Positions 8,801 to 24,601 of a DNA stretch of 51,411 bases are shown here, piece after piece. Each line of letters starts with the position of its first letter. Positions within the stretch are counted from its first letter, which is position 1. The position numbers were made by a program, and so were the translations under genes. The DNA is from an uncultured Gammaproteobacteria bacterium (GTDB lineage Bacteria > Patescibacteriota > Microgenomatia > UBA12405 > JAHJSD01). The stretch is from the NCBI GenBank assembly GCA_964498425.1, contig CAZCGQ010000005.1, forward strand, positions 1 to 51,411, read 5' to 3'. A model generated the notes under the pieces. That model ran no database searches. It had not been told where the DNA came from and worked only from the letters and a program-made list of their open reading frames with translations.

Positions 8801-8830
8801 ATTACACCACTATATGTATATTACTGTCAA
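8801..8830 (-). promoter_or_regulatory. Candidate sigma70-type promoter for the giant surface-protein gene
   Basis: Minus-sense TTGACA (8830-8825), an 18-nt spacer, then TGTAAT (8806-8801), about 30 nt upstream of the ATG at 8772. The -35 box overlaps the stop codon of the GT4 gene. Confidence 0.3.
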
Positions 8831-9950: not shown

Positions 9951-10400
9951 CTATTTAATATGAATAATTTTGCCAGTAACTAAAATGGGATCTCTAGCTC
10001 CTCCCTTACCCACTTCATACGCAAATTTTTCGCCGGCTTCCTTTCCAATTATTGACATGCCAAAGGCAGTCTTATCAGAAACTACTTTGCTACGAAAACC
10101 TAATACATCTACCCTTGTTTCTGAACTGGTTACTAAATAGTCTTCAGTTTCTTCTTCATCGTCAAATAGAACAGACACAAAGGATGGGATTTCAATTTTC
10201 TCCGGAGTTTCTTCTGGAGCTCTGGAGAGAGTTATTTTAAGCTCCTCTAATCGAACTCTCCTTTCTTTTTCAACGCCGCAGGCATTATCAAAAGGGTCAA
10301 ATATACCCGAACTATTATTCCAATTTCTTTCTGACAATTGTCGGCAATCCTCAATGTCCGCCTCGATTAGTTCAATTACCTTAGCAAAACGCTCAGACAT
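9951..10400 (-). CDS. GreA/GreB C-terminal-domain protein (Gre-factor or Rnk-like)
   Basis: 149 aa. The C-terminal half (VSVLFDDEEETEDYLVTSSE...VSDKTAFGMSIIGKEAGEKFAY...ILVTGKIIHI) follows the GreA C-terminal-domain pattern. The N-terminal half is acidic/helical but not a canonical Gre coiled coil. Confidence 0.5.
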   Translation of the reverse strand: MSERFAKVIELIEADIEDCRQLSERNWNNSSGIFDPFDNACGVEKERRVRLEELKITLSRAPEETPEKIEIPSFVSVLFDDEEETEDYLVTSSETRVDVLGFRSKVVSDKTAFGMSIIGKEAGEKFAYEVGKGGARDPILVTGKIIHIK

Positions 10401-10436
10401 ATTTTAATAGTATATAACATTATTTACTGCTATACA

Positions 10437-10489
10437 ATCCCAAGGTTCAAACCTAACCAACCTTCAAGGTTAATTTGTACTTGAACCTT
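10437..10489. repeat. REP-like double-hairpin element, copy 1
   Basis: Sequence atcccAAGGTTcaaacctaaccAACCTTcAAGGTTaatttgtacttgAACCTT. It contains two tandem hairpins with AAGGTT/AACCTT stems. 3 mismatches to copy 3 over 53 nt. Confidence 0.8.
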
Positions 10490-10516
10490 AATAAAATTAT
10501 GTACTATACTTAATTA

Positions 10517-11242
10517 ATGCCGGGGAGAAAAGTTCCTCTTGTAACAAGTTACTTCTACCATGTTTATAATCGAGGCGTTGAGGGACGTCCAACTTACACA
10601 TCAACCCTAGAATACAGAAGATTTTTGGACCTAATTAACTATTATCGATTTGAAAAGCCACCTACCAGTTATTCAAATTACAAGAATTATCCTAAAGAAA
10701 GAAAAATTGAAATTATGAATGAACTAAAAAACCAGCAAAAGACTCAAGTGGAAATTATTAATTATTGTTTAATGCCCAATCATTTTCATTTACTCTTAAA
10801 TCAAACAGCAGAAGATGGAATTTCAAATTTTATGAGCAAACTCCAGAATGGATACACGAAATATTTCAATAAAAGAAACAATCGTTATGGTTCACTTTTC
10901 CAAGGCAGATTTAAGTCAATAATAATTGAGTCCGAAAATCAATTACTTCATGTATTTCGATATATCGTTTTAAACCCATATTCAGCAGCAGTTGTGAAAA
11001 ATATTGAGAAATTATGTGAATATCCTTGGATACCATTAAAGGAATATCTGGAAAATTTTAGGAAAGAAAAATTATTAAATAAAAAAATTATACTGAATTT
11101 ATTTAGCAATGCGAGTAGTTTTAAAGACTTTATATTTGATTATGCCGATTATCAAAAGAAATTGGAAGTAATTAAGCATTTAACCTTAGAAAAATCAATC
11201 CTAACTTCCCAAGGTTCAAACCTAAACAACCTTCAAGGTTAA
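10517..11242 (+). CDS. REP-associated tyrosine transposase (RAYT) / IS200-like Y1 HUH transposase
   Basis: 241 aa. HUH motif in NYCLMPNHFHLLLN and catalytic-Tyr region HVFRYIVLNPYSA. The last 11 codons and the stop lie inside REP-like copy 2. Confidence 0.8.
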   Translation: MPGRKVPLVTSYFYHVYNRGVEGRPTYTSTLEYRRFLDLINYYRFEKPPTSYSNYKNYPKERKIEIMNELKNQQKTQVEIINYCLMPNHFHLLLNQTAEDGISNFMSKLQNGYTKYFNKRNNRYGSLFQGRFKSIIIESENQLLHVFRYIVLNPYSAAVVKNIEKLCEYPWIPLKEYLENFRKEKLLNKKIILNLFSNASSFKDFIFDYADYQKKLEVIKHLTLEKSILTSQGSNLNNLQG

Positions 11243-11258
11243 TCCCTACCTGAACCTT
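11206..11258. repeat. REP-like double-hairpin element, copy 2
   Basis: ttcccaaggttcaaacctaaacaaccttcaaggttaatccctacctgaacctt, in the same orientation as copies 1 and 3. 4 mismatches to copy 3. Confidence 0.8.
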
Positions 11259-11532
11259 CTCTATCTGTTTCAATTATTGACCTTGTTCTGGCGAGCAAAG
11301 CCGTCCGTTTCTGTCCTGGAGTTTCAGCTTTTATTCTTTCTGAGTTATGAAGCCTTGTTGGCAGCCATGTTTCAACAAGCGGATGCATATAGCCATTTGA
11401 AGTTAGTGACTCTCTTGCAGCAACCCCAATTGACTGTTCCTCACCAACTGACCTTCCCCACTGCCTATGACAATTAAGAAGTTTTAGAAAATCCCTATCT
11501 AACTTAGGTGGATTATCAATTCTTTCTAACAC
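11239..11532 (-). CDS. Hypothetical 97-aa ORF in a GC-enriched segment (coding status doubtful)
   Basis: The ORF exists, but its R/G/E/T-rich composition differs from the K/I/L/F-rich neighbours. Its last 6 codons and stop come from REP-like copy 2. No motif recognised. Confidence 0.25.
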   Translation of the reverse strand: MLERIDNPPKLDRDFLKLLNCHRQWGRSVGEEQSIGVAARESLTSNGYMHPLVETWLPTRLHNSERIKAETPGQKRTALLARTRSIIETDREGSGRD

Positions 11533-11585
11533 GTCTTAATTATAAATTCTATGACCACTAAAATCAACAATAAGCCAAAATCATA

Positions 11586-11638
11586 ATCCCAAGGTTCAAA
11601 CCTAATCAACCTTCAAGGTTAATCTGTACCTGAACCTT
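11586..11638. repeat. REP-like double-hairpin element, copy 3
   Basis: atcccaaggttcaaacctaatcaaccttcaaggttaatctgtacctgaacctt. Supplies the last codons (QGSGTD) and the stop of the GT2 ORF 11619..12518. Confidence 0.8.
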
Positions 11639-12518
11639 GTTTAGTATGTAATTCCCAAAATTTAATGTAGGCGGTGAGATGGTGAAGACCGGAATAGGCG
11701 GAGAAAACGAATCCTGGAAAACCGTCTAGAAATCCTTTATGACGAACAAATAATGACCAGAAAGTTTTTTCCGCCTTAAAATAGGCTTTCAAAAATTGCC
11801 AGAAGCTAGGTTTTAATCCTGAATCCAATAATTCCTGGGCAGTCAAACTGGTATAACGATTAGATCGGGATAAATACTTCTTGAAACTAGTATCAGCGTA
11901 ATGCAAAAGATCATTTTCCAACCAAGCCAACTGTCCATCAATTTCTATTTGTTCATGAACTGATTTACAAGGGAAGTTAGCTTTACCTTTTTTTATCAGA
12001 CGGACTACACCATCAGGGTAAGCCGCAGTATGCATCAAAAAACGATCAAGAAAATAATTTTTTCTTGGTACAAAAAAAGCTGAAATTTCCTCGGTATCTT
12101 TTCCATATTTACCATCCCTTTCTTCCAGTAAGTGTTGATGACGATTAAATAACCTTGTTTTTTTAGAATCCAACTTGCGATTTTTAATTTCATCATTCGA
12201 CATGTTTATCACCTCGGAAATTTCTTTAGCCAGCTCAGGGGAAACAACCTCATCTGCGTCAAGTTGAAGAATCCACTCACCTTGACATTTATCTATTGCC
12301 ATTTGTTTGTTGACGTGAAAAATTGGTTTATTCGTCGTCTTTATTACTTCCGCGCCGTGTTCTCGGGCAATTTTACGAGTTTTGTCAGTTGAACTACCGT
12401 CAACAATAATAATTTCATCCGCCAGATGCTTGACTGCATCTAGACATCTACCAATATTCTTTTCCTCATTGTAGGTGGCAATCGCCACAGATAATTTGTA
12501 TTTAGTATTTTGAACCAT
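11619..12518 (-). CDS. GT2-family glycosyltransferase (KdtX/WaaE-like subtype)
   Basis: 299 aa with LSVAIATYNEEKNIGRCLDAVKHLADEIIIVDGSSTDKTRKIAREHGAEV and LQLDADE. Same architecture as ORFs 29925..30722 and 31627..32574. Confidence 0.8.
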   Translation of the reverse strand: MVQNTKYKLSVAIATYNEEKNIGRCLDAVKHLADEIIIVDGSSTDKTRKIAREHGAEVIKTTNKPIFHVNKQMAIDKCQGEWILQLDADEVVSPELAKEISEVINMSNDEIKNRKLDSKKTRLFNRHQHLLEERDGKYGKDTEEISAFFVPRKNYFLDRFLMHTAAYPDGVVRLIKKGKANFPCKSVHEQIEIDGQLAWLENDLLHYADTSFKKYLSRSNRYTSLTAQELLDSGLKPSFWQFLKAYFKAEKTFWSLFVRHKGFLDGFPGFVFSAYSGLHHLTAYIKFWELHTKQGSGTD

Positions 12519-12521
12519 GTA

Positions 12522-12908
12522 CTATGAACTTCGGGATTTTAATCCATTAACACCTTTTAATAAGCCTGAAAGCAACTTTTGAGACGTTACCGTCTGTTCA
12601 GCAATTTTACCAAATTCTACGTTATCAATATACCCAACATCTCTTGCGATCAATAATTGATTTTGAAGCTCGGTAAGTGATGCTTTAGATATCAAATAAA
12701 ATTGAATCTTCTCTTTTTTCCCTCTCCTAGTAAAACCTTCTGCAATATTTGACGTTACCGAAATAGCCGCACGAATGATTTGATCCTCTAATCTGTACCT
12801 CTCTTTTCTGGGAAAATTATCAACCACTTTGTAAATCATCAAAACCAAATTATGTGCTTCTTTCCAAGTATTTAGCTGAGTAAAACTTTGAATTTTCTTT
12901 TTATGCAT
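12522..12908 (-). CDS. Four-helix-bundle protein (23S rRNA intervening-sequence protein / Avd-like family)
   Basis: 128 aa. FPRKERYRLEDQIIRAAISVTSNIAEGFTRRGKKEKIQFYLISKASLTELQNQLLIA is the hallmark of this family. Confidence 0.85.
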   Translation of the reverse strand: MHKKKIQSFTQLNTWKEAHNLVLMIYKVVDNFPRKERYRLEDQIIRAAISVTSNIAEGFTRRGKKEKIQFYLISKASLTELQNQLLIARDVGYIDNVEFGKIAEQTVTSQKLLSGLLKGVNGLKSRSS

Positions 12909-12917
12909 TTTTCCCTC

Positions 12918-12938
12918 TGTTCAATGTTCTATGTTCCA
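12918..12938. repeat. 7-bp tandem array (TGTTCnA x3), intergenic
   Basis: tgttcaa tgttcta tgttcca, located 10 nt upstream of the four-helix-bundle gene start. Its reverse complement belongs to the TAGAAnn family. Confidence 0.6.
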
Positions 12939-12944
12939 AATACA

Positions 12945-14486
12945 TTATTCGTATATTTGTGTCTGCGGAAATTCTTTAACTAGTCTACCATTTTTCGGCG
13001 GTTGATTTGAAAAAGTATACCTGTCAAACTGGCGGACCGTAGAGAAACCAAACTCATCCGGAGGGGTTAGTTCAATTTCTGCCTGCATTTTTTCCGGCGA
13101 ATATTTAGAATAAAAAGCGGTCAAAATGTAGGGCTGATCATGTTTGGTAACAATTGTAAACGCCTGATTAGGCTGTTCAACCATCCACTTTACCGCCTCT
13201 TGATAACCTCGTGGCCAAGCGGTAGGATACCGTTGCAAATAATGTACAAAATAATTGTTCCACCAAAGCATTATCCCCCACAAATAACCACAAATTATCA
13301 ACCCGCAACCTGTAACTCGTAACAATTTCCCCTTTATGCATAATAACTTTTTACACCCGTAAGCGGTAAAAAAGGTTAGTGGAATGACCATCGACAATGA
13401 CCTTAAGGCTGACGGTGCCTGAAAGGTTAATGAGGATGCTACTGGCGTTAAAATAACTAATAAGACAGGCAAGTACTTATCCTTCATCTTGCTTTTAATA
13501 AACTTCCAACCACCAACGACTAGCCACAACCCGCTAATTAAATGCATTTGACCCATTCCTGGAATTTTACTTCTCGGCACTTCATCTCCAGAAATAAACA
13601 AGAAATTACCATTAAAATGTGAAAAATAATTTTCGGTTAATGAGATTACATAACCCAGATATCGATTATGGAAAATTGTTGGTACTAAACTATCCGTATT
13701 TTGATGCTGGGCTCTTAGTTCGTTAATTCGCCATAAAGGTCCGGTATCCGCAAACAATCCTACTCCAGAAAAACGAGAACTTGCTCCCCCACTTAAAAAT
13801 GAAACTGCTAAAGGAACAATTAGAATAAATCCGACAATAATTGGCAAGTACAACTTCTTTTTTAACTGCCATAATTTCTGAAAATTAAAAATAGCTAATC
13901 CCAAAAAAAGTAAAGGAGCGATTAATCGTGCACTGTGATAAACATACATACTCGCAATCAGCGATAGAATTGAAAATTGAAAATTGAAAATTGAAAATTC
14001 ACGACTTTTTTTAATAGCAGCAAAGAAAAAGTATATCCCTAGAGTAATAAAAAAAGTCGCTGTATTACTTTCCCAACCACCGCGTGAAAAATGGAGATGC
14101 CAAGGAGACACTGCTAATAAAAAAGCCCAAGCCAGCCCTAATTTGCGGTCATTCCAAATAAGCATGGACAGTTTATAGACAAGAAAAATAGTTAATAGCG
14201 ATAAAATTACTGCCGGCAGTCGAACAGCAAAGGTATTTAATCCCAAAATCGCTACTGAAGGTAAAACTAAATAAAAGTACCCCCCCGGTTTAAAGTCCCC
14301 AAAAGACTTAAAATCTACCGGCCAAGAAACACCGTGCTCGTCACGGCCTGTCTTCAACAAACTGTATACATTATAACCAATTGCTGCCTCATCAGCATTT
14401 AGCGGCGGATAACTTCCAATCCGATAAAACCTAAGGAAGGATGCCAAAATCAAAATAATAATTAAATAAATAGTTGTTTTCCTCAT
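12945..14486 (-). CDS. GT-C membrane glycosyltransferase, PMT/ArnT-like (GT39/GT83-type), tandem paralogue 1
   Basis: 513 aa. Loop-1 motif YPPLNADEAAIGYNVYSLLKTGRDEHG, then SPWHLHFSRGGWE. About 11 helices plus a C-terminal soluble domain (GYQEAVKWM...PYILTAFYSKY). Confidence 0.75.
   Translation of the reverse strand: MRKTTIYLIIILILASFLRFYRIGSYPPLNADEAAIGYNVYSLLKTGRDEHGVSWPVDFKSFGDFKPGGYFYLVLPSVAILGLNTFAVRLPAVILSLLTIFLVYKLSMLIWNDRKLGLAWAFLLAVSPWHLHFSRGGWESNTATFFITLGIYFFFAAIKKSREFSIFNFQFSILSLIASMYVYHSARLIAPLLFLGLAIFNFQKLWQLKKKLYLPIIVGFILIVPLAVSFLSGGASSRFSGVGLFADTGPLWRINELRAQHQNTDSLVPTIFHNRYLGYVISLTENYFSHFNGNFLFISGDEVPRSKIPGMGQMHLISGLWLVVGGWKFIKSKMKDKYLPVLLVILTPVASSLTFQAPSALRSLSMVIPLTFFTAYGCKKLLCIKGKLLRVTGCGLIICGYLWGIMLWWNNYFVHYLQRYPTAWPRGYQEAVKWMVEQPNQAFTIVTKHDQPYILTAFYSKYSPEKMQAEIELTPPDEFGFSTVRQFDRYTFSNQPPKNGRLVKEFPQTQIYE
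13964..13999. repeat. 7-bp tandem array (TGAAAAT x4 perfect plus 1 degenerate)
   Basis: Four perfect units occupy 13971-13998. Sense strand encodes IFNFQFS inside paralogue 1. Confidence 0.9.
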
Positions 14487-16180
14487 TGACTTCCTCCCTC
14501 ATAACCATAAAACATTGTTTTCCCGCCAATTGTGCCAATTGCCTCCAAATTGTTAAAAACTGGCTTACCTTCCAATTCATTTCTAAACATCTCATCCTCA
14601 GAAATAATCAATAATAAATCTTTATTTTTTGAGTCTTCACCCCAGTTAATTGGCTCAAAACTTATCTTGTCAATTTGCCTAACTCTACCAACGTCAACCT
14701 GATTAGATTCTTCAAAAAACGCTTGATTTTGGAATTTAACTGGTGGGTACTTAGAGTAAAACAAATAAAAAATATGGGGTTGGCCATAAAAATCCGTCAT
14801 TTTAATCTCTTTAAAATTTCCTTTCTTATCATTGATATAGTTCACAGCCTGCTGATGCCCGTAAAGCCACTGTTTAGGATTAAGCTTGACCAAATGGTTG
14901 TAATAAAGGTCTAAATAATAACCCCCGTCCAGCATAACGAAAATGAATAAGATAACTAGTCCGCAACTCGCCCACCTTGCCGCAAGGTAGGTAACACGTA
15001 AGAATTTAATTTTAAATAACTCATTTAATCCATAAGCAATAAAAAAGCTAATTGCAATAATCGTTGGTAAAGCCCGAACCGAAGAAACTGAATCTCGTGT
15101 TAAAACTGAAGGCAGAGGAATTATAACCAACCAATAAAGCCAAAAATTCTCCTGCCAGCGTTTATTTTTACTGACAAAAAATATTAGGCCTAAAATTAGC
15201 AAAATAAATCCTAGATGACCAATTACCCCAAAATAAGGTGCCGAATGTCTGGCATTTTGCCAGTCCCCTTCAAAGGCCAAAAAGCGCGGAGAAAAATGAT
15301 TGAAATAACGAGACAAACCACCTCGCAAAAAATGCAACCACTCACCATGGAATAAATTGTAATGAATACTTTTTTTTTCTATTTGGTCCTCAAATAAAAT
15401 TTGGTTTACTTCTTGGTCTGGCCGGTGATATGAAAATAAGCTGGCTACCTTTAAGCGATTGCTTGCCGGACCAGAAAAGGAAGCAGTGTACCACCAAGCG
15501 GCGAGTATCAGGAATATTGAACTTAGAACATAGAACTTAGGGATAAGAATATTTTTCCACCCCCCCGGTTCTTGGTTCATGGTTCTAACCCACAGATACA
15601 CCAATCCCAGTCCAACCAACGGAACAACCATCTTCGCGCCCTGGTAAGTCACCAAAGCAAAAATAAAGGAAATTAACCCGGCAATGAGCCATTGACATTT
15701 ATCGTTGCTTATCCACTTAACAATTGCATAGGAACCAACCGTTATTAAAAAGGTCATTACGTTCGTCTCCCAAGCACCGCGAGAAAAGTGAATATGCCAA
15801 GGCATCAGTGCCAATACTCCAGCACTGATTAGTGATAGACGGTCACTTTTACTAATTTCTCTAACCAAAAGATATAAAATAAACGGTGTCAAACTACCTA
15901 AAATAATTGAAGGAAGTCGAACAGCTAATTGGTTTAGGCCCAAAATCCCGACAAACGGAATCGATAAATAAATATATAAGCCAGGTTTATAATCACCAAA
16001 AGACTTAAAAATTAACGGCATGAACTGACCGTATTCATCCTTACCAGTTTTTAAAATTGAATAAGCATTGTAACCCAAGCTTGCCTCATCCCAAAGTAAG
16101 GGAGGATATTGGCCGACCCGATAAATCCTTAATCCAAAACTAATAATTAAAATTAGAATTAAAAAATATTTATTTTTCAT
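14483..16180 (-). CDS. GT-C membrane glycosyltransferase, PMT/ArnT-like, tandem paralogue 2
   Basis: 565 aa with YPPLLWDEASLGYNAYSILKTGKDEYG and MPWHIHFSRGAWE. C-terminal domain LYGHQQAVNYI...QPHIFYLFYSKY. Confidence 0.75.
   Translation of the reverse strand: MKNKYFLILILIISFGLRIYRVGQYPPLLWDEASLGYNAYSILKTGKDEYGQFMPLIFKSFGDYKPGLYIYLSIPFVGILGLNQLAVRLPSIILGSLTPFILYLLVREISKSDRLSLISAGVLALMPWHIHFSRGAWETNVMTFLITVGSYAIVKWISNDKCQWLIAGLISFIFALVTYQGAKMVVPLVGLGLVYLWVRTMNQEPGGWKNILIPKFYVLSSIFLILAAWWYTASFSGPASNRLKVASLFSYHRPDQEVNQILFEDQIEKKSIHYNLFHGEWLHFLRGGLSRYFNHFSPRFLAFEGDWQNARHSAPYFGVIGHLGFILLILGLIFFVSKNKRWQENFWLYWLVIIPLPSVLTRDSVSSVRALPTIIAISFFIAYGLNELFKIKFLRVTYLAARWASCGLVILFIFVMLDGGYYLDLYYNHLVKLNPKQWLYGHQQAVNYINDKKGNFKEIKMTDFYGQPHIFYLFYSKYPPVKFQNQAFFEESNQVDVGRVRQIDKISFEPINWGEDSKNKDLLLIISEDEMFRNELEGKPVFNNLEAIGTIGGKTMFYGYEGGSQ
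15512..15553. repeat. 7-bp tandem array (degenerate GAAnnTA/TAGAAnn x6)
   Basis: gaatatt gaactta gaacata gaactta gggataa gaatatt. Sense strand encodes KFYVLSSIF in paralogue 2. Confidence 0.7.
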
Positions 16181-17801
16181 AGCTTATAATTTCAAAAGCT
16201 GTTTCACCATGCAAAAAGTCAATTTCCCTGACCAACTTTCCACCTTCGATATAATTTCCCGGGCTGGTCACTAATAATATCTTCTCTTCCTCGTCACTAA
16301 CTTTTAACTTTTCCTTTATCTCCCAATTATTCCAAAATTGAAACTTATCAAAACCGTCAACCCAATACCAGTGAGTGTGGTAATCCCATTTTTTGTCTGG
16401 ATCGTTTTGATAATAGCTTGGCTTCCACGGCCAGTGAAATAAAATAAATTCATGTGGTTCGCCATATCTTTTAGTGAAAATAATTTTGTCATATTTACCA
16501 TAATTTTCCTTGACGTAGTTAACCGCTTGTTTATAACCGTATTGCCAGGACCAGGAATAATTAGCCCGATATATCTGCCAGTACTGATTCCACCAAGAAC
16601 CAAAACTAACCAGGGTTATTCCAATAAAAGCCGCAATTACTGCCCACCCTCCCAATTTTGACTTACTCTTCCTAAGAAAGTTTTTAACCTCAATGAGACC
16701 GTAGGCCGAAATAATGGCCGGAACAGGCAGGATGAGAATACTCCTTAAAACGTGAGGAGAATCCTTAGTTATTGCTGAAGGGACGAAACTAACTGCCAAC
16801 CAAAACAACCAAAGGTATTTCTTCTCTCTGATCAGCAAATATACCCCGTAAATTAAAAAAGGAGCGGTTATCAAATAGATTAATTCATGTCCGGGAAATG
16901 AAAATTGATAATTCTCTCCACCGCGAAAAAACAGCCATCTTGGCGAAAAATGCTTAAGGTAATTTTTGAAAGCAGTAGTAGCAAAATATGTTGGCCGATT
17001 AAAGAGTAGTTTTTTGAAAATAAACGGTAAAGAAGATGACCCGCGCCTTTCATTAATTTGATTAACTACCCCTTGGTCAACAATATTTACCCAATATAAT
17101 CTAGCTCGCCCAGATTGGCTGAAAAATTGACTGACTACTGGCAAAGCAAAAAGAACAAAAACAACTGCTGTTAATCCCAATTTCTTAAATTTTCTTTGTT
17201 GAAGTAATTTTGTCAGTAATATAACGCCGGCAACTGGAACTAAAACACGGGCTGAATTATAGGAGTAGACAGACAGTGACCAAAAAATACTGGTAGCCAA
17301 ATAATAGTTATTAAAGAACATTAACCAACCTAATGAAAATAAAAAGACGGCTAAATTTGCTTCTACCGCTACTCGGGATAAAAATAATGCCCAGGGCATC
17401 GTTGCCGTAATAAAAGCAGCCAACAGTCCACCTACCCTGCTTTTAGTTAATTTTTTTGCTAAAAAGTAACTGACCACAATTAACCCGGTTCCAGATAAAA
17501 TTGAAATCAATCTCACTCCAAGTGCATTTAAGCCAAACAACCTTATTATCGGTACTGTTAGGTAAATATACAGAGGAAGTTTAAAATCTCCATAGGCTCT
17601 GAAGATTAATGGAAATGATTTTCCCCACTCATCACGACCAGTTTTTAAAATTGAGTAAGCATTATAACCATGCGATACTTCATCCCAATTTAAAGAGGGG
17701 GGATTGCTACCGATACTGTAAATTCGCAAAAAAAAGCCACCTAAAACAATAAAAATGAAAATTAGGTTAAACTTTGATAATATAGATGGCCGGTTCTTCA
17801 T
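16170..17801 (-). CDS. GT-C membrane glycosyltransferase, PMT/ArnT-like, tandem paralogue 3
   Basis: 543 aa with NPPSLNWDEVSHGYNAYSILKTGRDEWG. C-terminal domain QYGYKQAVNYV...EPHEFILFHW. Confidence 0.75.
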   Translation of the reverse strand: MKNRPSILSKFNLIFIFIVLGGFFLRIYSIGSNPPSLNWDEVSHGYNAYSILKTGRDEWGKSFPLIFRAYGDFKLPLYIYLTVPIIRLFGLNALGVRLISILSGTGLIVVSYFLAKKLTKSRVGGLLAAFITATMPWALFLSRVAVEANLAVFLFSLGWLMFFNNYYLATSIFWSLSVYSYNSARVLVPVAGVILLTKLLQQRKFKKLGLTAVVFVLFALPVVSQFFSQSGRARLYWVNIVDQGVVNQINERRGSSSLPFIFKKLLFNRPTYFATTAFKNYLKHFSPRWLFFRGGENYQFSFPGHELIYLITAPFLIYGVYLLIREKKYLWLFWLAVSFVPSAITKDSPHVLRSILILPVPAIISAYGLIEVKNFLRKSKSKLGGWAVIAAFIGITLVSFGSWWNQYWQIYRANYSWSWQYGYKQAVNYVKENYGKYDKIIFTKRYGEPHEFILFHWPWKPSYYQNDPDKKWDYHTHWYWVDGFDKFQFWNNWEIKEKLKVSDEEEKILLVTSPGNYIEGGKLVREIDFLHGETAFEIISYEK

Positions 17802-19431
17802 TTGGATACCTAATTATTGTATCAGGTTTAACGTTATAGGGAAATTCTTCAGGTTTACCGATAAGAACTGAACCCTTGATTAAGGAATCAGACGCCCAGT
17901 TTATCTCTTTAAAGAGATATTTACCCAGCCGATACTCGCCTAACTGATCAACAAAGCTTAAACCCTCTTCTTCATATCTAAGCCAATCCTCTGTTTCCTT
18001 CTGGGCTTTGGCCGGCGGATATTGACCGCAAAATAAAGCGTAAGCTTGTGGTTCGGAAAGCTTTCTTGACATAATAATTTGTTCAGCTTGTGAATAATTT
18101 TTTTGTACATATTCAACTGCTTCACACCGCCCATAAAGCATTGCCTCCGCCGTCAGCCGCGGAGACTGGACAAAATAAACCTCCAAGAAAGAAATAAAGG
18201 AATAAATAAATAAAGTGATCAAGATTGGAATTATAATTTTTAACTTTTCACTTTTAACTTTTAACTTCCAGCTGCTCCAAGCGATAAGCATCTGGATGAA
18301 TGGCATCATTACTGCTGCCCGATTGCCCATCCTGCTTCCCTTAGTCAACGCCGCCGGAATCGGGGCAACTAATATTACCGCCAGTAAAGATAGTACAGCG
18401 ATCATTGTATTATCTTTACCAATTGACTTGATTAAATGAATTACACCATAAATTAAAACTAGCAATGTCCACCACCACAAAACTCCATAACCAGGCATCA
18501 TCCCGTAAGTACCTTCACCTGGGCCCTCTGTAAACAAAAATTGGGGTGAAAAATAAGTTAAATAATTCTCAAAAAACTTTGAAAAAGTGTATGTAGCCTT
18601 ATTATGAACTATCCGTGCTAATCCACTGGGGATTTGGTGGTTAACTGCCCACCAACGACTGTCTTTAACCACTTGCCACTTATCTGTTGGGCTAAACACA
18701 GCAATATCTAAACCTCGAGATTGGCCACCAGTAATAAAGGAAGAAAAAGCAACTAGAAAGAAGATAGAATATAGAACTAAGAAGCTAGAATTTTGGGAAA
18801 AATATTCTTTTACTGCATTAAGCTTTGAGCCTTTAGCTCTTAGCAATATTTTTGCGACACACAAAAATATTACCACCGGGGTAATTAATTTGGCACTGTG
18901 GTAAGAAAACATATTTAGTCCCAGTAAAACTGCCGACAGAATTTGATAGTTTTTTAATAACGCCCAAACCCCAAATGAGATAAAAAAAACTGTCATGTTA
19001 GCCTCAAAGGCTCCGCGTGATAACGGCCAATGCCACGGTGAAAAAGTAATCAAGCCTGCAGAAATTAAACCTATTTGAGGAGATTTTAACAATTCTCTAG
19101 CTAAAAGATAAACTCCCAAAATTGCTAATGTTCCTAATAATGCATTTGGAAAACGTACAGAGAATTTATTTAATCCAAAAAGTTTTATCGAAGGGATAAT
19201 TAAATAAGTCTGCAGTGGCGGTTTGTAATCACCGTAAGACCTTAGATTTAAAGGCCAAGACTTGCCCCATTCATCCCTGCCCGTTTCTATTAAAGAATAG
19301 GCAGTATAACCCTGCATTGCTTCATCTGGCGTCAACCCAGCTGGATATTTTTCCAATTTCCACAACCGCAAGAATCCCCCCGCAATAACTAAAAAACTTA
19401 AAACTAGAATATGTCTATTTCTATTATTCAT
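17767..19431 (-). CDS. GT-C membrane glycosyltransferase, PMT/ArnT-like, tandem paralogue 4
   Basis: 554 aa with YPAGLTPDEAMQGYTAYSLIETGRDEWG and SPWHWPLSRGAFE. C-terminal domain LYGRCEAVEYV...EPQAYALFCGQY. Confidence 0.75.
   Translation of the reverse strand: MNNRNRHILVLSFLVIAGGFLRLWKLEKYPAGLTPDEAMQGYTAYSLIETGRDEWGKSWPLNLRSYGDYKPPLQTYLIIPSIKLFGLNKFSVRFPNALLGTLAILGVYLLARELLKSPQIGLISAGLITFSPWHWPLSRGAFEANMTVFFISFGVWALLKNYQILSAVLLGLNMFSYHSAKLITPVVIFLCVAKILLRAKGSKLNAVKEYFSQNSSFLVLYSIFFLVAFSSFITGGQSRGLDIAVFSPTDKWQVVKDSRWWAVNHQIPSGLARIVHNKATYTFSKFFENYLTYFSPQFLFTEGPGEGTYGMMPGYGVLWWWTLLVLIYGVIHLIKSIGKDNTMIAVLSLLAVILVAPIPAALTKGSRMGNRAAVMMPFIQMLIAWSSWKLKVKSEKLKIIIPILITLFIYSFISFLEVYFVQSPRLTAEAMLYGRCEAVEYVQKNYSQAEQIIMSRKLSEPQAYALFCGQYPPAKAQKETEDWLRYEEEGLSFVDQLGEYRLGKYLFKEINWASDSLIKGSVLIGKPEEFPYNVKPDTIIRYPNEEPAIYIIKV
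18238..18267. repeat. 7-bp tandem array (TTTTAAC/TTTTCAC x4)
   Basis: ttttaac ttttcac ttttaac ttttaac. Sense strand encodes KLKVKSEKLK in paralogue 4. Confidence 0.85.
18758..18792. repeat. 7-bp tandem array ([t/a]AGAAnn x5)
   Basis: aagaaga tagaata tagaact aagaagc tagaatt. Sense strand encodes SSFLVLYSIFF in paralogue 4. Confidence 0.65.
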
Positions 19432-19436
19432 TACAA

Positions 19437-19464
19437 ACCACTAGCCACTAACACCTAATCGCTA
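19437..19464. repeat. 7-bp tandem array (CCACTAn-type x4, degenerate)
   Basis: accacta gccacta acaccta atcgcta. Spans the TAG stop of paralogue 5 and the 23-nt gap before the paralogue 4 start. Minus-sense TAGGTGT TAGTGGC TAGTGGT. Confidence 0.65.
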
Positions 19465-21086
19465 CTTGTTACCCAATACATTAACGGATTTCCCCATGGA
19501 TCATCCACTGCTTTTTCAATTTTCAATCCCTCCGGGGAACTTAATTCCCAATCCCAATCCCCTGGGACTTCCTTTCCTTGATAAGCTAAATACAAATCAT
19601 TAGAGTTTAAATTTTCCTTTAACCAGTTGATTTTATCTTCCATTGTAATTAGGCCAAAGTAAGTATTATTGATTTCAAAGCCATTAAAATCAGAAAGTAT
19701 ATTTTCATTCAGCTGGTCGTTATCAAAATTTTGATGAAACTCCCTCGGATTAATTTCATTCCAAAACAAATATCGAATAAGTCCTGGCTCTAAAGAATTG
19801 CTGATAATTACGCGTTGATTATCTCTGTTTTTCTTCAACCAAGTCATTGCCTCCCGATAACCGTAGTGCCAATGCCGATATGTTTCTTGCTGATAATGTA
19901 CAAAATAATAATGAAAAAAGAAAAATAAGTTAATAAATAGTAATAAGTAAACGGGAGCAAGTAACAATTTCTTTTTAACAGAATTAAGACCCAAACTAAC
20001 AAGGATAACCAGGGGTGGAAGCATCAAAAATAGACGAGTCGCCTGATTACCGCCGCCAACAGTCAAAGCAGATGGAATTGGCGAAACTAACAGCCAGGAA
20101 GTCATCAAAACTTTAAACTGATTACTATGATTTTTGAACAACTCCAAGACACCTAACATCATAAATGGTGCAAATAACCAATAAAATTGTCCGTAATCGG
20201 GCAAACTATGCCGAGGGTTTGGATCCCCGTTCAAAAATAGAAACTGTGTCGAAAAGGAAGCTAAGTAATTAGAAACAAAATTGCCACCCCACCCAGTTAA
20301 CTTATTATGAAAAACCCTCTCTACCTCCGGATTAATTCCTGTATTTCGCAGATGAATAATCTTTCTAATTGTCACATCATCTCCAAAAATGCTTATCAAG
20401 TTAAACCTCCCAGCAGCTTGGCCCAAAAATATTTGATAAACAATAGGCAAACCTACCACTAAAAGGATAATTCCAGGTAAAATCATCCCTTTTAGACCAC
20501 TAAATATCTTTTTTCTTTTGGAAAAGATGAGTACTAGTCCCAATAAGGGGACAAAAACATTGGCTGTATTGTAGGTATAAAAGCTAAGTCCAAAAAGTAA
20601 AGCAGAAAGGGAAAATTTTTCTTTGTAAAAGAACAACGTTCCGGCCAAAACAAGTCCAAGAAGCAAAGTTGATTCAAATGCCGTTCGTGAATAATGAATG
20701 TGCCAAGGAATTACAGCTAAAACAAACCCGGATAATAAGCCCAGCTGTTTGTTATCAGCTAATTCCGTGACTAAACGGTAAATCAAATATACATTTAACA
20801 CTCCTAACAAAACCACTGGTAGCCTAACTGACCAAGCGGAAAGTCCCAAAATACCAACAAAGGGAGCAGTTACATACATTAGCAGCGGAGCTCGCCATTC
20901 CGAAAAGGACTGAATATAAGTGGGCAGCAACTGCCCACGATAATCCCTGCCTGTCTGCCAAATAGAATAAGCATGATAACCAACATCAAGCTCATCACCA
21001 AATGGTTCTAGATGTCCCAATCTATAAATTCTTAATCCGAAAGCAAGAACCAAAACTAAAATTAAAATAAGTTTATTTTTCATCAA
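19455..21086 (-). CDS. GT-C membrane glycosyltransferase, PMT/ArnT-like, tandem paralogue 5
   Basis: 543 aa with LEPFGDELDVGYHAYSIWQTGRDYRG and IPWHIHYSRTAFE. C-terminal domain HYGYREAMTWL. Confidence 0.75.
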   Translation of the reverse strand: MMKNKLILILVLVLAFGLRIYRLGHLEPFGDELDVGYHAYSIWQTGRDYRGQLLPTYIQSFSEWRAPLLMYVTAPFVGILGLSAWSVRLPVVLLGVLNVYLIYRLVTELADNKQLGLLSGFVLAVIPWHIHYSRTAFESTLLLGLVLAGTLFFYKEKFSLSALLFGLSFYTYNTANVFVPLLGLVLIFSKRKKIFSGLKGMILPGIILLVVGLPIVYQIFLGQAAGRFNLISIFGDDVTIRKIIHLRNTGINPEVERVFHNKLTGWGGNFVSNYLASFSTQFLFLNGDPNPRHSLPDYGQFYWLFAPFMMLGVLELFKNHSNQFKVLMTSWLLVSPIPSALTVGGGNQATRLFLMLPPLVILVSLGLNSVKKKLLLAPVYLLLFINLFFFFHYYFVHYQQETYRHWHYGYREAMTWLKKNRDNQRVIISNSLEPGLIRYLFWNEINPREFHQNFDNDQLNENILSDFNGFEINNTYFGLITMEDKINWLKENLNSNDLYLAYQGKEVPGDWDWELSSPEGLKIEKAVDDPWGNPLMYWVTSSD

Positions 21087-22356
21087 CTAATAAAATAAAT
21101 TTATAAATATAATATCCAAAAGTTAATATTAACCCTAATGACATTAACCTAGCTAAAGCAAAGTTTTGCCATTCTAGGATAGTTCTTAAAAAAGGCAGGG
21201 ACGGGTACCACCAAAGGTTGTAAAGATTTAGCCAATGAATTACTGTCAAGCCGATAAATAATTTTAACGGAATAATTCCAAGGGCAGTTAAAATTGCACT
21301 TGGAGCGAAAACAGGATAAAGGTAACGTTCATGCATATTAGTTAAAAACAAAAAGGCAGTTAATGATAATAGAATTAGATTCAATAAATAAAACTTAAAT
21401 TTTGGTTTCGACTTTAACTGTTTAATAAGCCCAAATCCAGATAAAAACATCATGATTAATCCTGATAAAAAACGGCCAAATCTTCTAGCCGTCGTTCCCA
21501 AAAATGATACCGTTTCTTTTAAACCCAGGTCAACACCGAAAACTAGCGTCCAAAAATTAAAAGCATTTCCGGAAAGCATATTTCCCTGTCTGGGCAGGAC
21601 ACGATTGGTATACATATACCACAACCAAGTAAAAACATTCCCGTGATGAACAAAGGGAAGGGAAATTAGAAAATAGAAACTAGAAGATAGAATAAAGGCT
21701 AATAATATTTTTAACCATTCTTTGTTCCTAAGTAGTATCAGGCCGAAAATTGGAAGCCAGATTATTAATGACAGTTTAAAATACAAACTGCCGATAAAGG
21801 CTAATAAGCCCCAAAGGTATTTCTTATTCCAAATCAACCAAACTCCCATCAAAGCCAGTAAATTAATCAAAGGATCGGTTTGGCCCCAAACAGCAGAGTT
21901 ATAAATTAATGCCGGATTAAACCAAATTAATCCTCCACCAAGTAAAGCCTTTTTTTTATCTGCAGTAAGTTTAAGAACCATCCGGTAAACCAACCATCCC
22001 AAGCCTATTTCAGCTAGAACAAATGGAATTTTAACTAGAATAAAAGAAAGTTTTTTTTCGAGAAATGGCATTATAAACGAAGGAAACGCCCTAATTTCCT
22101 GATTTAAAAAGGTCAAGCCGTTAAACATTAATTCGTCTGCCTTAGTAATTGCCCCAAAAAGATACATTGATCCCGGCGGTTGGTTTGGCCAGGAAATGCC
22201 CCAAAAAATACTTTCGTAAAAATCCCTTGGACCGTATCGCCATAATCTTTGCCCCCAATCAATATGGTTTCTAATATCAGGATGATATTGAGCTCCAACC
22301 GCAATTACTAAACGAATAACTAGTGCTAAAACAACGAGTTTCTTTACCTTTGACAT
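21073..22356 (-). CDS. GT-C-like membrane glycosyltransferase (ALG6/ALG8- or Gpi18-like, COG5542-type)
   Basis: 427 aa, multi-pass. The loop DIRNHIDWGQRLWRYGPRDFYESIFWGISWPNQPPGSMYLF parallels the D-x-x-x-x-x-W...Y...DYPPL loop of ALG6/8-type enzymes. HERYLYP lies near the C-terminus. Confidence 0.55.
   Translation of the reverse strand: MSKVKKLVVLALVIRLVIAVGAQYHPDIRNHIDWGQRLWRYGPRDFYESIFWGISWPNQPPGSMYLFGAITKADELMFNGLTFLNQEIRAFPSFIMPFLEKKLSFILVKIPFVLAEIGLGWLVYRMVLKLTADKKKALLGGGLIWFNPALIYNSAVWGQTDPLINLLALMGVWLIWNKKYLWGLLAFIGSLYFKLSLIIWLPIFGLILLRNKEWLKILLAFILSSSFYFLISLPFVHHGNVFTWLWYMYTNRVLPRQGNMLSGNAFNFWTLVFGVDLGLKETVSFLGTTARRFGRFLSGLIMMFLSGFGLIKQLKSKPKFKFYLLNLILLSLTAFLFLTNMHERYLYPVFAPSAILTALGIIPLKLFIGLTVIHWLNLYNLWWYPSLPFLRTILEWQNFALARLMSLGLILTFGYYIYKFILLVDEK
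21667..21694. repeat. 7-bp tandem array (TAGAAnn x4)
   Basis: tagaaaa tagaaac tagaaga tagaata. Sense strand encodes LSSSFYFLIS. Confidence 0.8.
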
Positions 22357-23153
22357 AATTGGCTTGTTCTTATTATAAGATTAATTAGGTAATGTTCCAA
22401 AAGTCCGTGATACTTTCTACTGCTTTCCACTAACCATTGATTTGGCTTTTCAGCTAAATTTTTGCCGCTGGCTCCGTGTAAGTGGATAACTTTAGCTTCA
22501 GGTAAATAAACAATTCTTAAATCTTCTTGGCATGTCCTTCGGCAGTAATCAATATCCTCATAATACATAAAATACTTCTCATCCAGTAAACCAACTTTTT
22601 TCAATGTTTTCCTCGGCAATAACCAAACTGCTCCAACAACAGCCTCAACTTCTTGCGCCTCATTCCCTTCGGGGGTATATTTGCCAAATGCTTTGGAATT
22701 ACCCAACCAAAACTTTTTAACAGCCCCAACAACCGTCGGCAGTTTCAAACAAGAAGGTTGAACAGATCCATCTAAATTAAGTAACTGTGGAGCAACAATA
22801 CCAAGGTCATCATCTTTATTAGCAAAATCAATCAAGGCCTTGATACTCCCCGATTCTATTTCTGTATCGGTATTCAGCACAAGAAGATATTCTCCTTGTG
22901 CCTTTTCCAACCCCTGATTAACTGCCTTCCCAAACCCCAGATTCTCATTATTTTCTATCAAAATAATTTTGAACTTTGAACTTTGAACTTTGAACTTTCT
23001 GACAAACTCTACCGAGTTGTCAGAACTATTATTATCAACCACAATAACTTCTATCTCGGTCATAGGCAGTTGAAGGTTACAGACTAAACTTTTTAAGCAA
23101 TTTTGAAGCAGTTTTTTGGTATTAAAATTTACAATAATTATCGATAAGGTCAT
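22344..23153 (-). CDS. GT2-family glycosyltransferase
   Basis: 269 aa with LSIIIVNFNTKKLLQNCLKSL...VIVVDNNSSDNS...NENLGFGKAVNQG...LVLNTDT. Confidence 0.85.
   Translation of the reverse strand: MTLSIIIVNFNTKKLLQNCLKSLVCNLQLPMTEIEVIVVDNNSSDNSVEFVRKFKVQSSKFKIILIENNENLGFGKAVNQGLEKAQGEYLLVLNTDTEIESGSIKALIDFANKDDDLGIVAPQLLNLDGSVQPSCLKLPTVVGAVKKFWLGNSKAFGKYTPEGNEAQEVEAVVGAVWLLPRKTLKKVGLLDEKYFMYYEDIDYCRRTCQEDLRIVYLPEAKVIHLHGASGKNLAEKPNQWLVESSRKYHGLLEHYLINLIIRTSQLCQR
22968..22998. repeat. 7-bp tandem array (TTTGAAC x4 perfect)
   Basis: Four perfect units occupy 22968-22995. Sense strand encodes KFKVQSSKFK in the GT2 ORF. Confidence 0.9.
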
Positions 23154-24601
23154 TGCTTAACTTGAAGATAATATTTCGGCAAATTTGCCTTTAATCGCTG
23201 TAATCCCTCTATTTCCTCTCGTTGGGTTAATAAAACTGCCTGTTCAGGCAAAGATTGCCCACTTTGCCATTTCGATACGGGTTGATCAAAATAAGCCGCT
23301 TCATAAAACTTCGCTGATTCGCCATCGGCCTGAAAAATAGTCTCCGAAATAAAAGGCTGATAATTCTTTTCTTTGGCAATTTTCAATAACCCGAGATAGC
23401 TCTCTTCAATTGGCTCAGACAACTGTTGATCAATTTGATTAGGATATTTCCACCAATAATAACCAACAAAATCAATATAGTTAATTGTCATTAATCCCAC
23501 AATAAAGACGATTATTAATCTCTTCCCCATTCCTGACTGCCATAGTTGTTTAAACCCAAAACCGGCGATAATGACAAACATTGGAATTAGAGCCATTAAC
23601 CGGCTGGCTCGGTGTACAGAATTAACTAAACCGTAAAGGAGGGGGCCGGTCAAAAAAACGGCTAAGGCAAACCGTTCTTCTTTTCGTCCTTTAGCTAAAA
23701 CATAGTATATTCCAGCCAAAAACAGGGGTAAGCTTGCCAGCAGGTACATCCCATGCCTTCCAGTCGAGTGGTAAACAGTTTGATCTCCTTGGACAAACAA
23801 AAAGGATAAATCATAACTAGACAAATAGGCATTAAATAGATTATAAACTGATCCAACTTGTGGCGACTGACTGTCAAAAACCGCTCCAGCGTATTTTTGC
23901 TGAAGAAGCGGTATAACGGCAAAAAAAGGTAGGGTTCCCAGACTAAAGTAAAGGCACTTTCTGAAAATCATTTTCAAATCTGGCCAGTTGTTGACCAGTA
24001 AATATCCAGCTGTTAACAACGACCAAACTGGAACAATTGCCCGCATTCCTTTATAAGTATAAAATCCAACTCCCAAACTGGCTCCAGCCAAAACCAAAAA
24101 CAGCCTTTCTTTCCTTTTAGTACTTAAAAACAAGAACATCAGCCAGAGAAGGACAAAGGGTATCGGCATGATATTGTCTAATCCAAGATGGGATTGAATC
24201 ATTATCAGTGGAATGGTCAGATAAACGCCACCTGCTGCTACCGCCCCCAATTTTCCCATCATCATTTTAGCCAGATAATAAACTAGAACTAAGCTGATTA
24301 AAATTATTAAAACACTCGTTAATCTTAGTTTATATTTACTTGCCCCAAAGATTTTAAAAAAGGCCGTCATCATATACTGGGTTACCGGCTGCCGCCAATC
24401 CTGACCATTTATTGATAAAACAAAAAAAGGTAAAAACCGACCATTTTCGTCATAACCAGTTTCGCTTAATAAAACAGCATTATAACCAAAGGCAGCCTCG
24501 TCAACTGTCAAGCCTGAAGGAACTTTATTTAAACGGTAAGAAAAAAATAAACCCAGAGGGATTAAAATTAAAACCCAAATTAAAACCTTTTTAATTATCA
24601 T
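23150..24601 (-). CDS. GT-C membrane glycosyltransferase, PMT/ArnT-like (sixth, more divergent paralogue)
   Basis: 483 aa with VPSGLTVDEAAFGYNAVLLSETGYDENG, multi-pass. Shorter C-terminal domain than the tandem five. Confidence 0.7.
   Translation of the reverse strand: MIIKKVLIWVLILIPLGLFFSYRLNKVPSGLTVDEAAFGYNAVLLSETGYDENGRFLPFFVLSINGQDWRQPVTQYMMTAFFKIFGASKYKLRLTSVLIILISLVLVYYLAKMMMGKLGAVAAGGVYLTIPLIMIQSHLGLDNIMPIPFVLLWLMFLFLSTKRKERLFLVLAGASLGVGFYTYKGMRAIVPVWSLLTAGYLLVNNWPDLKMIFRKCLYFSLGTLPFFAVIPLLQQKYAGAVFDSQSPQVGSVYNLFNAYLSSYDLSFLFVQGDQTVYHSTGRHGMYLLASLPLFLAGIYYVLAKGRKEERFALAVFLTGPLLYGLVNSVHRASRLMALIPMFVIIAGFGFKQLWQSGMGKRLIIVFIVGLMTINYIDFVGYYWWKYPNQIDQQLSEPIEESYLGLLKIAKEKNYQPFISETIFQADGESAKFYEAAYFDQPVSKWQSGQSLPEQAVLLTQREEIEGLQRLKANLPKYYLQVKQ

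Follow-up and report, generated by a model that had tools for sequence, protein, structure and literature searches.

Why should one bacterial contig hold five homologous membrane glycosyltransferase genes in direct succession, and do the five do the same work? The window, that is, the whole stretch of 51,411 nt analysed (contig CAZCGQ010000005.1 of assembly GCA_964498425.1), is AT-rich throughout (GC ~0.37), and from its left end to ~44 kb it is a near-continuous glycosylation island on the minus strand. Five successive minus-strand open reading frames (ORFs) of 513–565 aa occupy positions 12945–21086 and are called A to E here: A (12945..14486, 513 aa), B (14483..16180, 565 aa), C (16170..17801, 543 aa), D (17767..19431, 554 aa), and E (19455..21086, 543 aa). 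Judged by sequence, they are one copy each of five ancient, non-redundant orthogroups, A to E, of a subfamily within GT-C class A, D being an accessory member. With moderate confidence we read them as a line of enzymes that would assemble or decorate an envelope glycoconjugate outside the membrane, with a distinct acceptor step for each orthogroup.

Arrangement of the five genes

The five ORFs lie head to tail and can be aligned along their full length (29–35% identity to A, 28–35% over all pairs); the ORF listing, the alignment, and the Pfam matches here bear out a first-pass annotation made from the letters alone, with which our coordinates agree exactly. All five carry the motifs reported there: an Asp-Glu pair (NADEAA, LWDEAS, NWDEVS, TPDEAM, and FGDELD, from A to E), PW..(S)R..E, and YG(Y/H/R)..A(V/M). 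The junctions are tight: A and B overlap by 4 nt, B and C by 11 nt, and C and D by 35 nt, a gap of 23 nt separates D from E, and E overlaps the next upstream gene (21073..22356) by 14 nt. A scan for promoter- and terminator-like sites across the array found them at background frequency, with nothing firm; together with the overlapping junctions, this fits a single transcript for the array. A search of RNA runs turned up none that contains the region. The longest ORF of E opens with TTG, directly followed by ATG (21083–21086), and its true start is probably the ATG at 21083, in which case the overlap with the upstream gene would drop to 11 nt.

The annotation had counted a sixth paralogue, F (23150..24601, minus strand, 483 aa). 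F is a member of Pfam PMT_2 (1.1e-14), but a distant relative, with 22% identity, a score of 120 against the hidden Markov model (HMM) of the family (≥500 for A–E), and no match to the profile of the C-terminal domain described below.

Orthogroups, gene order, and distribution

A scan at one genome per species gave 80 loci; the family tree (FastTree, 363 family members) drew on 82 related loci. Each copy falls into a clade of its own: A (75 sequences, support 100), B (84 sequences, support 98), C (72 sequences, support 83), D (42 sequences, support 99), and E (47 sequences, support 98), with at most one member per locus in A, C, and D and at most two, reached in two loci each, in B and E. The clades are related as (E,(..,((D,C),(A,B)))), so that C is sister to D (support 92) and E the earliest-branching of the five; three more orthogroups of the family in the tree have no member in the window. 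By the family HMM, most loci with enough flank hold 3–7 members and short contigs 1–3. The commonest gene order is E-D-C-B-A: where the flank is long enough, A comes after B in 73/73 loci, and C stands before B in 70 of these.

Aligning the paralogues and building their tree, as the first-pass annotation had suggested, separates A–E into orthogroups and contradicts the idea of a young array. Because each copy has its own clade and the order is fixed across loci, the duplications are placed by these sequences before the split of the candidate phyla concerned, and the copies have not been homogenised since.

Where the loci are labelled, their titles are mostly Shapirobacteria, Woesebacteria, Amesbacteria, or “Microgenomates”; in the sample examined, the subfamily is found almost solely in Microgenomates-type bacteria of the Candidate Phyla Radiation (CPR). 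Many records of metagenome-assembled genomes entitled “uncultured Gammaproteobacteria bacterium” (binchicken co-assemblies; L004, L007, L008, L013, L016, and others) carry a Microgenomates-type cassette, and those titles are evidently mislabelled placeholders. A sediment metagenome of another study yielded, for positions 19640–22330 of the window, short contigs 95–99% identical to the array, with many differences that are mostly transitions; close strains or species therefore live in another habitat.

Fold and family assignment

All of A–E pass the Pfam gathering score of PMT_2 (A, 1.1e-07; C, 1.8e-06; D, 7e-10; E, 6e-11; B likewise). The score of Pfam PMT (PF02366, cutoff 22.7) is passed by B (57.7; 1.7e-15), D (32.9; 6e-08), and E (24.9), but not by A (20.6) and C (16.9). 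The same Pfam scan found no PMT_4TMC module in any copy at E ≤ 0.01, and neither MIR nor STT3 domains in A–E.

An AlphaFold2 (AF2) model of B, built on an alignment of 61 sequences, has a pLDDT of 92.9 and a pTM of 0.93. Compared with the PDB by Foldseek, it gives 28 matches at E ≤ 1e-3, with probability 1.00 to STT3, PglB, AglB, ArnT, Pmt4, ALG9/ALG12, EmbA/B/C, and DPY19 (TM-scores 0.45–0.53), and with the best E-values to STT3, PglB, and AglB (5e-08 to 3e-06). On this model, we assign A–E to the GT-C class A fold (Pfam clan CL0111; ArnT/PMT/STT3-type), within which they have no close solved structure. At the level of sequence, searches of the PDB with family profiles are marginal (STT3, 0.01–0.017; ArnT, 0.83), and hhalign aligns the family with E. 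coli ArnT over a short match at a probability of 13%.

The copies had been described as PMT/ArnT-like, which stands for the structural class and fails for the families of that name. None of the NCBIfam models scores close to its cutoff. The equivalog for protein O-mannosyltransferases (NF058602) matches D only, with 24.9 bits (cutoff 800), and that for the lipid IVA Ara4N transferase (NF009784) gives 21.5 bits for A and 24.5 for F (cutoff 567). Compared with the reference operon of E. coli, the arn context (arnB, arnC, arnA, arnD, arnE/F) is absent from the window, which holds instead generic GT2/GT4 enzymes, flippases, and more GT-C genes. With curated models far below cutoff, no PMT_4TMC, and no arn context, membership of GT39 (PMT proper) or GT83 (ArnT) was rejected. 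B has more than 4320 full-length homologues which, where named at all, are called “GT39 family” or “phospholipid carrier-dependent glycosyltransferase” and come from Patescibacteria/Shapirobacteria; the labels “GT39 family” and “ArnT-like” claim more than is known.

Topology and active site

In the model of B, the first transmembrane (TM) helix spans residues 2–19 and is followed by outer loop 1 (EL1) with helices 30–45 and 68–80, TM2–TM7 (84–235), a long helical outer loop (236–320), TM8–TM9 (321–353), a short outer loop (354–372), TM10–TM11 (373–433), and the C-terminal domain (434–565). The order of helices points to about 11 TM helices, which would leave the C-terminal domain outside the membrane.

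D31 and E32 (B numbering) are 100% conserved in 320 sequences from all five clades, and R88, S133, R134, Y179, R242, and R369 are universal in the family. The D31-E32 pair stands at the start of helix 30–45, directly past TM1 and before the first outer-loop helix. Aligned with MAFFT, the N-termini of the family place D31-E32 on D31-E32 of E. coli ArnT (LLWQPDE; MG1655), K-P on E-K-P of ArnT, and V-R, which includes R88, on the V-R of ArnT TM2. The Asp-Glu pair, taken for the GT-C catalytic motif from the outset, does map onto the catalytic first-loop motif.

The further sites agree with the published map of the clan. Enzymes of the GT-C/PMT clan have a DE or DD before the first loop-1 helix (ArnT D55/E56, Pmt1 D77/E78), a basic residue before the second (ArnT K85), in loop 2 an acidic residue where TM4 begins (ArnT D158), a lysine after TM5 (K203), and an arginine in loop 5 just before TM10 (PMC7801869, PMC12331936). 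In our family, each clade conserves K65 (as R in clade E), E138, K/R183, and R369, and the model puts the set where the map of ligand sites has it (PMC7801869): before the first and the second EL1 helices, at the TM4 N-terminus, after TM5, and just before TM10. A weak HMMER alignment to 5ezm, the ArnT of C. metallidurans (E 0.83), likewise sets K65 on K85 and E138 on D158, given an assumed chain offset of 3 residues. With D31-E32, K65, E138, K/R183, and R369 at published GT-C sites, all five copies look, and are predicted to be, catalytically competent.

C-terminal domain and divergence between the copies

The shared C-terminal domain of ~130 aa claimed by the first-pass annotation is confirmed for A–E by a profile that avoids circularity, built from B-orthologues of other genomes only, which matches C (2e-16), D (2e-14), A (9e-13), and E (9e-11). 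In A, the match is limited to positions 2–77 of 130, so that the domain is shortened in this copy. Modelled alone (AF2), the domain is an alpha/beta fold of ~130 aa with a pLDDT of 92.3; it has no Pfam model, and in isolation no significant Foldseek match in the PDB (best E 0.88). Equating it with the periplasmic domains of ArnT, PglB, or AglB was accordingly rejected. It opens with W438-x-Y440-G441 directly past the last TM helix (M-L-Y-G in clade D). The profile matches 2611 of 1.84 billion representative clusters; in 150 of 150 listed matches, the domain lies at the extreme C-terminus, full-length hosts measuring 514–634 aa, and the shorter matches look like N-terminally truncated fragments.

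Identity between orthologues relative to that between paralogues, taken domain by domain, was used in place of dN/dS among the paralogues, whose synonymous sites are saturated at 28–35% amino acid identity. Between the paralogues of the window, identity falls from 47% in TM1 and loop 1 (orthologue/paralogue ratio 1.40) to 35% in TM2–TM7 (1.25), 27% in loop 236–320 (2.0), and 23% both in the later TM helices (1.37) and in the C-terminal domain (1.7). The paralogues are thus most alike around the catalytic loop, while the ratio peaks in the long outer loop and the C-terminal domain. Signatures of the clades also stand beside the active-site motifs: N-A, L-W, N-W, T-P, and F-G before the DE in A to E, position 311 (R/R/Q/Y/R), and the residues preceding R369.

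Acceptor choice in characterised GT-C enzymes lies with the corresponding loop and C-terminal parts, as in MtPMT (PMC12331936) and in enzymes acting on wall polymers (PMC8035078). Since divergence is concentrated in those very parts, we infer, by analogy and from the sequences, that A–E would share their donor chemistry and differ in their acceptors; with shared chemistry and different acceptor-facing parts, they would be non-redundant. The annotation had suggested that the copies diversified in their specificity for acceptor or donor. Their conservation agrees with a common chemistry and different acceptors, and the diversification is ancient and fixed, not ongoing.

Assembly and recombination

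That the array might be an artefact of collapsed or expanded repeats, a doubt raised together with its first description, is ruled out. There is no long shared repeat (the longest among the paralogues is 71 nt at 76% identity and encodes the N-terminal helix of B and E), the contigs of a public metagenome run tile positions 12000–23000 at an even depth of 5–8.7 without joints or indels, and the array recurs in dozens of other, independently assembled genomes. Since the tiling run consists of contigs only and may be the sample of origin, the independent assemblies are the stronger argument. Recombination or gene conversion among the copies, also proposed at first, had to be given up: they share no nucleotide tracts and cluster by position, not by genome. 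Neither concerted evolution, in the tree of 363 members from 82 loci, nor read-level rearrangement, in the run contigs over 12000–23000, was found.

Three arrays of heptamers, of 4.4–4.9 copies each, two perfect and one 88% matching, lie within coding sequence: AATTGAA in A (13968–13999), TAACTTT in D (18234–18267), and TTTGAAC (22968–22998) in the GT2 gene at 22344–23153. Contigs of the assembler break or have loose ends exactly at these arrays in 4/4 metagenome runs, and the flanking letters differ in related samples, which suggests multi-copy or length-variable tracts.

Genomic neighbourhood

Downstream of A, the conserved genes run on in the same direction. The next is a GT2 glycosyltransferase (11619..12518, minus strand, 299 aa; Glycos_transf_2, 3.7e-23), which has a homologue in 72 loci at a median of +3267 nt from the start of B, always on the same strand. 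The second is a GT4 glycosyltransferase (8827..9915, minus strand, 362 aa; Glycos_transf_1, 3.9e-32), with homologues in 63–67 loci at a median of +4151 nt. The conserved tail of the operon, all on the minus strand, comprises a GT-C gene of GT87-like type (3003–4241; homologues in 25 loci), a Wzx-type flippase (1751–3022; 21 loci), a short GT2 resembling polyprenyl-phosphate-sugar synthases (1021–1764; 52 loci), and a further GT2 (48–1031; 31 loci). Homologues of these tail genes (48..4241), which were assigned by Pfam and by sub-threshold NCBIfam similarity to PpgS/ArnC/Wzx, lie 5–6.5 kb downstream of B on the same strand. GT2 genes that resemble ArnC/PpgS/Dol-P-hexose synthases occur in the island, and so do Wzx/GtrA-type genes.

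Other genes in this part are insertions. A surface protein with CarboxypepD_reg repeats (Pfam; 4249..8772, minus strand, 1507 aa) is an insert in the conserved block and no part of the conserved cassette; it has a homologue in 1 of the 82 loci (L001), for which reason we rejected it as a conserved acceptor. A GreA-like gene (9951–10400), an IS200/Y1 transposase (10517–11242, plus strand), and a gene for a 23S-rRNA-IVS/bAvd-like four-helix-bundle protein (12522–12908), all assigned by Pfam, are lineage-specific, their homologues being absent or found in ≤6 loci; the conserved GT2 gene at 11619–12518 also lies within the bounds of these inserts (9951..12908). The transposase is the sole plus-strand gene in that part of the island and interrupts the conserved A-GT2-GT4 block. 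The IVS/bAvd-like gene sits between A and the conserved GT2 gene, and a nearby homologue occurs in 2/82 loci.

On the upstream side, the gene overlapping E (21073..22356, minus strand) encodes a multi-pass membrane protein of 427 aa with a weak match to Pfam Mannosyl_trans4 (0.012) and with homologues in 35–36 loci, mostly on the same strand and upstream of the array; it is probably a further GT-C enzyme. In the syntenic relative GCA_964428655.1, the order is the 427-aa gene, E, D, C, an insert of 4.8 kb, B, and A, then the GT2 and GT4 genes, with a surface protein of 1524 aa further downstream; in locus L001, the array is syntenic with the window and a 427-aa gene precedes E. Farther up, an ORF of 576 aa (35652–37382) has no Pfam match and shares a C-terminal “FPGWKA.IDxQP” motif with a YfhO-type ORF of 747 aa (25500–27743). 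In 37 related loci (L006, L009, and L015 among them), a homologue lies ~3.3 kb upstream of B, and in Shapirobacteria-type loci it takes the slot held elsewhere by orthogroup D.

In all, the island (48–44215) encodes at least 15 probable membrane enzymes of GT-C type, about ten GT2 and two GT4 enzymes, and two Wzx-type flippases. The probable GT-C genes are A–F and those at 3003–4241, 21073–22356, 25500–27743, 27747–28904, 35652–37382, 37388–38950, 39692–41149, and 41947–43041, possibly joined by 32576–34228.

A proposed mechanism

In the assembly line that we propose, the enzymes would work at the outer face of the membrane, each transferring to an acceptor the sugar of a polyprenyl-phosphate-linked donor. 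The short GT2 genes of the island are the candidate donor synthases, and the Wzx/GtrA-type genes the candidate flippases. D31 would be the catalytic base, K65 and R369 would hold the phosphate of the donor, and E138 and K/R183 would line the pocket for sugar and acceptor; the long outer loop (236–320) and the C-terminal domain, where the five copies differ, would face the acceptor. Most likely, the five would each serve a different position or stage of a single envelope glycoconjugate, as a line outside the membrane that would be co-transcribed with the cytoplasmic GT2/GT4 enzymes and a flippase.

Several points weigh against this reading. Of 53 loci with enough flank, 32 have D and 36 have E within the 10 kb on either side, so that a third of the loci lack them and a strict line of five steps is not universal. 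Conserved order alone is no proof that the enzymes act in sequence: the genomic picture would look the same if they worked in parallel on different polymers or proteins, or as hetero-oligomers. The likeness to solved GT-C structures is at the level of the fold only (TM-score ~0.5, with E-values of 0.01–0.8 in sequence searches of the PDB), and among the genes of the window we recognised no initiating phosphoglycosyltransferase, polymerase, or ligase. The data above show the class of fold, the conserved motifs and where they lie, the orthogroups, and the constancy of order and neighbours; the type of donor, the topology, the differences in acceptor, and the sequential action of A–E are what we infer from them.

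We consider it rather unlikely that A–E are instead PMT-like protein O-glycosyltransferases, whether each modifies its own group of secreted or surface proteins or they work as obligate hetero-oligomers in the way of yeast Pmt1-Pmt2. The PMTs (GT39: yeast Pmt1-Pmt2, 6p25; Pmt4; the M. tuberculosis PMT) share Pfam PMT/PMT_2 with our family, and B, D, and E do pass the PMT cutoff; however, the Pmt equivalog is matched far below its own (24.9 vs. 800), PMT_4TMC and MIR were not found, and the C-terminal domain is a different one. A DE before the first loop-1 helix is a hallmark of PMTs and Pmt4 is among the Foldseek matches, yet most GT-C enzymes share the DE/DxD motif, which is not specific to PMTs (PMC12331936). 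PMTs have about 11 TM helices and the arginine before TM10, as has our model, and fungal genomes, yeast included, hold several PMT paralogues, some of which act as heterodimers. A giant surface protein is indeed encoded in the island, but with its homologue in 1/82 loci it is not a conserved partner; the conserved operon partners of A–E (GT2, GT4, and Wzx-type flippase) are typical of lipid-carrier glycan assembly and are not secretion partners.

Quite improbable, in our view, is a role like that of the oligosaccharyltransferases (OSTs), in which preassembled glycans would be moved from undecaprenyl-pyrophosphate onto proteins or wall polymers, with W-x-Y-G in the role of WWDYG. The W438-x-Y440-G441 motif does come right after the last TM helix, where OSTs have WWDYG, but it lacks the Asp of WWDYG, and in clade D it reads M-L-Y-G. 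The best Foldseek E-values of the model belong to STT3, PglB, and AglB, although ArnT, Pmt4, and ALG9 match nearly as well, no copy matches Pfam STT3, and the C-terminal domain, compared in isolation, matches no periplasmic domain of OSTs significantly (best E 0.88). The universal arginine before TM10 is found in OSTs as well, and a Wzx-type flippase is part of the operon; against this, five OST paralogues in a probably small genome would be unprecedented.

A recently expanded and still diversifying tandem array, with recombination or gene conversion between copies, has in its favour that homologous genes lie head to tail, and is hardly credible when these are 28–35% identical with no better shared stretch than the 71 nt at 76%, when each groups with its orthologues of other genomes and not with its neighbours, and when their order is conserved across candidate phyla with no structural variation at read level.

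Comparison with known systems

For the proposed assembly line, the closest analogies are the tandem embC-embA-embB genes and the sequential ALG enzymes of the endoplasmic reticulum (ER) lumen. The mycobacterial genes are anciently diverged GT-C paralogues in fixed tandem order, which use a polyprenyl-phosphate-sugar donor. Their products have distinct acceptors (arabinogalactan or lipoarabinomannan), which are bound by C-terminal extracytoplasmic domains, and EmbA and EmbB form a heterodimer; with ~1,050–1,100 aa, they have 15 TM helices and carbohydrate-binding modules. Emb structures are among the Foldseek matches of the B model, but their chains are 1035–1078 long against ~550 aa here, there is no sequence relation beyond the fold, and the genes here number three to five or more. 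ALG3/9/12 and ALG6/8/10 are a series of GT-C enzymes that use dolichyl-phosphate (Dol-P) sugars in strict sequence on one flipped lipid-linked glycan. ALG9 and ALG12 are likewise among the matches of the B model; the ALG enzymes, however, come from other GT families, have no soluble domain at the C-terminus, and are encoded by dispersed genes, and sequential action is proven for them, whereas here we only propose it.

ArnT (GT83; 5ezm/5f15), the undecaprenyl-phosphate-L-Ara4N:lipid A transferase, resembles A–E in its GT-C class A fold (Foldseek E 2.4e-06; TM-scores 0.50/0.52), in the Asp-Glu after TM1, in the alignment of R88 with the V-R of its TM2 and of K65 and E138 with its K85 and D158 (these last two by the weak alignment with its assumed offset), in having an extracytoplasmic C-terminal domain, and in a nearby GT2 of polyprenyl-phosphate-sugar synthase type. 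It differs in that its equivalog reaches only 21–24 against 567 here, in having 13 TM helices against ~11 in our model, in a C-terminal domain to which ours has no match, in its partners (there is no arnA/B/D in the window), and in being one gene where we find five fixed paralogues.

In the Gram-positive systems CsbB/GtlA + GtcA + YfhO/GtlB and GacI-L, a GT2 makes the C55-P-sugar, a flippase of GtrA or Wzx type moves it, and a GT-C carrying a (modified) DxD motif transfers the sugar to a wall polymer outside the cell (PMC8035078). All three types of component are encoded in our island. Those systems, though, pair one GT-C with one synthase and decorate a polymer made elsewhere, whereas here there are five or more GT-C enzymes, all from one subfamily, in a fixed cassette; by analogy, this suggests that the backbone itself may be built or extended outside the membrane.

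Significance

The enzymes are of a known kind; what is new is the fixed cassette of several paralogues and a C-terminal domain without a match. Full-text literature searches found no paper describing either. In annotation, copies A–E should not be treated as redundant. The definitions of the orthogroups, the clade-specific signature residues, and the modelled, unmatched C-terminal domain provide handles for expression, for structure determination, and for donor and acceptor assays.

To our knowledge, experiments have revealed almost nothing about the cell envelope of CPR/Patescibacteria, even though their attached life on host cells is mediated by it. These ultra-small bacteria are known for small genomes (typically ~1 Mb in the Microgenomates class), and of the glycosylation island, which is at least 44 kb long, the array alone occupies 8 kb. 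More tentatively, and at less than even chances, Microgenomates-class CPR bacteria may build their main envelope glycoconjugate largely outside the membrane, by means of an ancient GT-C line in fixed order (a core triad C-B-A with D, E, and further orthogroups) whose hitherto undescribed C-terminal alpha/beta domain, starting with W-x-Y-G, would read the growing acceptor; such a line would be the bacterial equivalent of the ALG series in the ER lumen or of the mycobacterial Emb/Aft system. Five or more large paralogous membrane glycosyltransferases, kept in fixed order class-wide, imply a strongly selected, multi-step extracytoplasmic glycan pathway that has no characterised counterpart.

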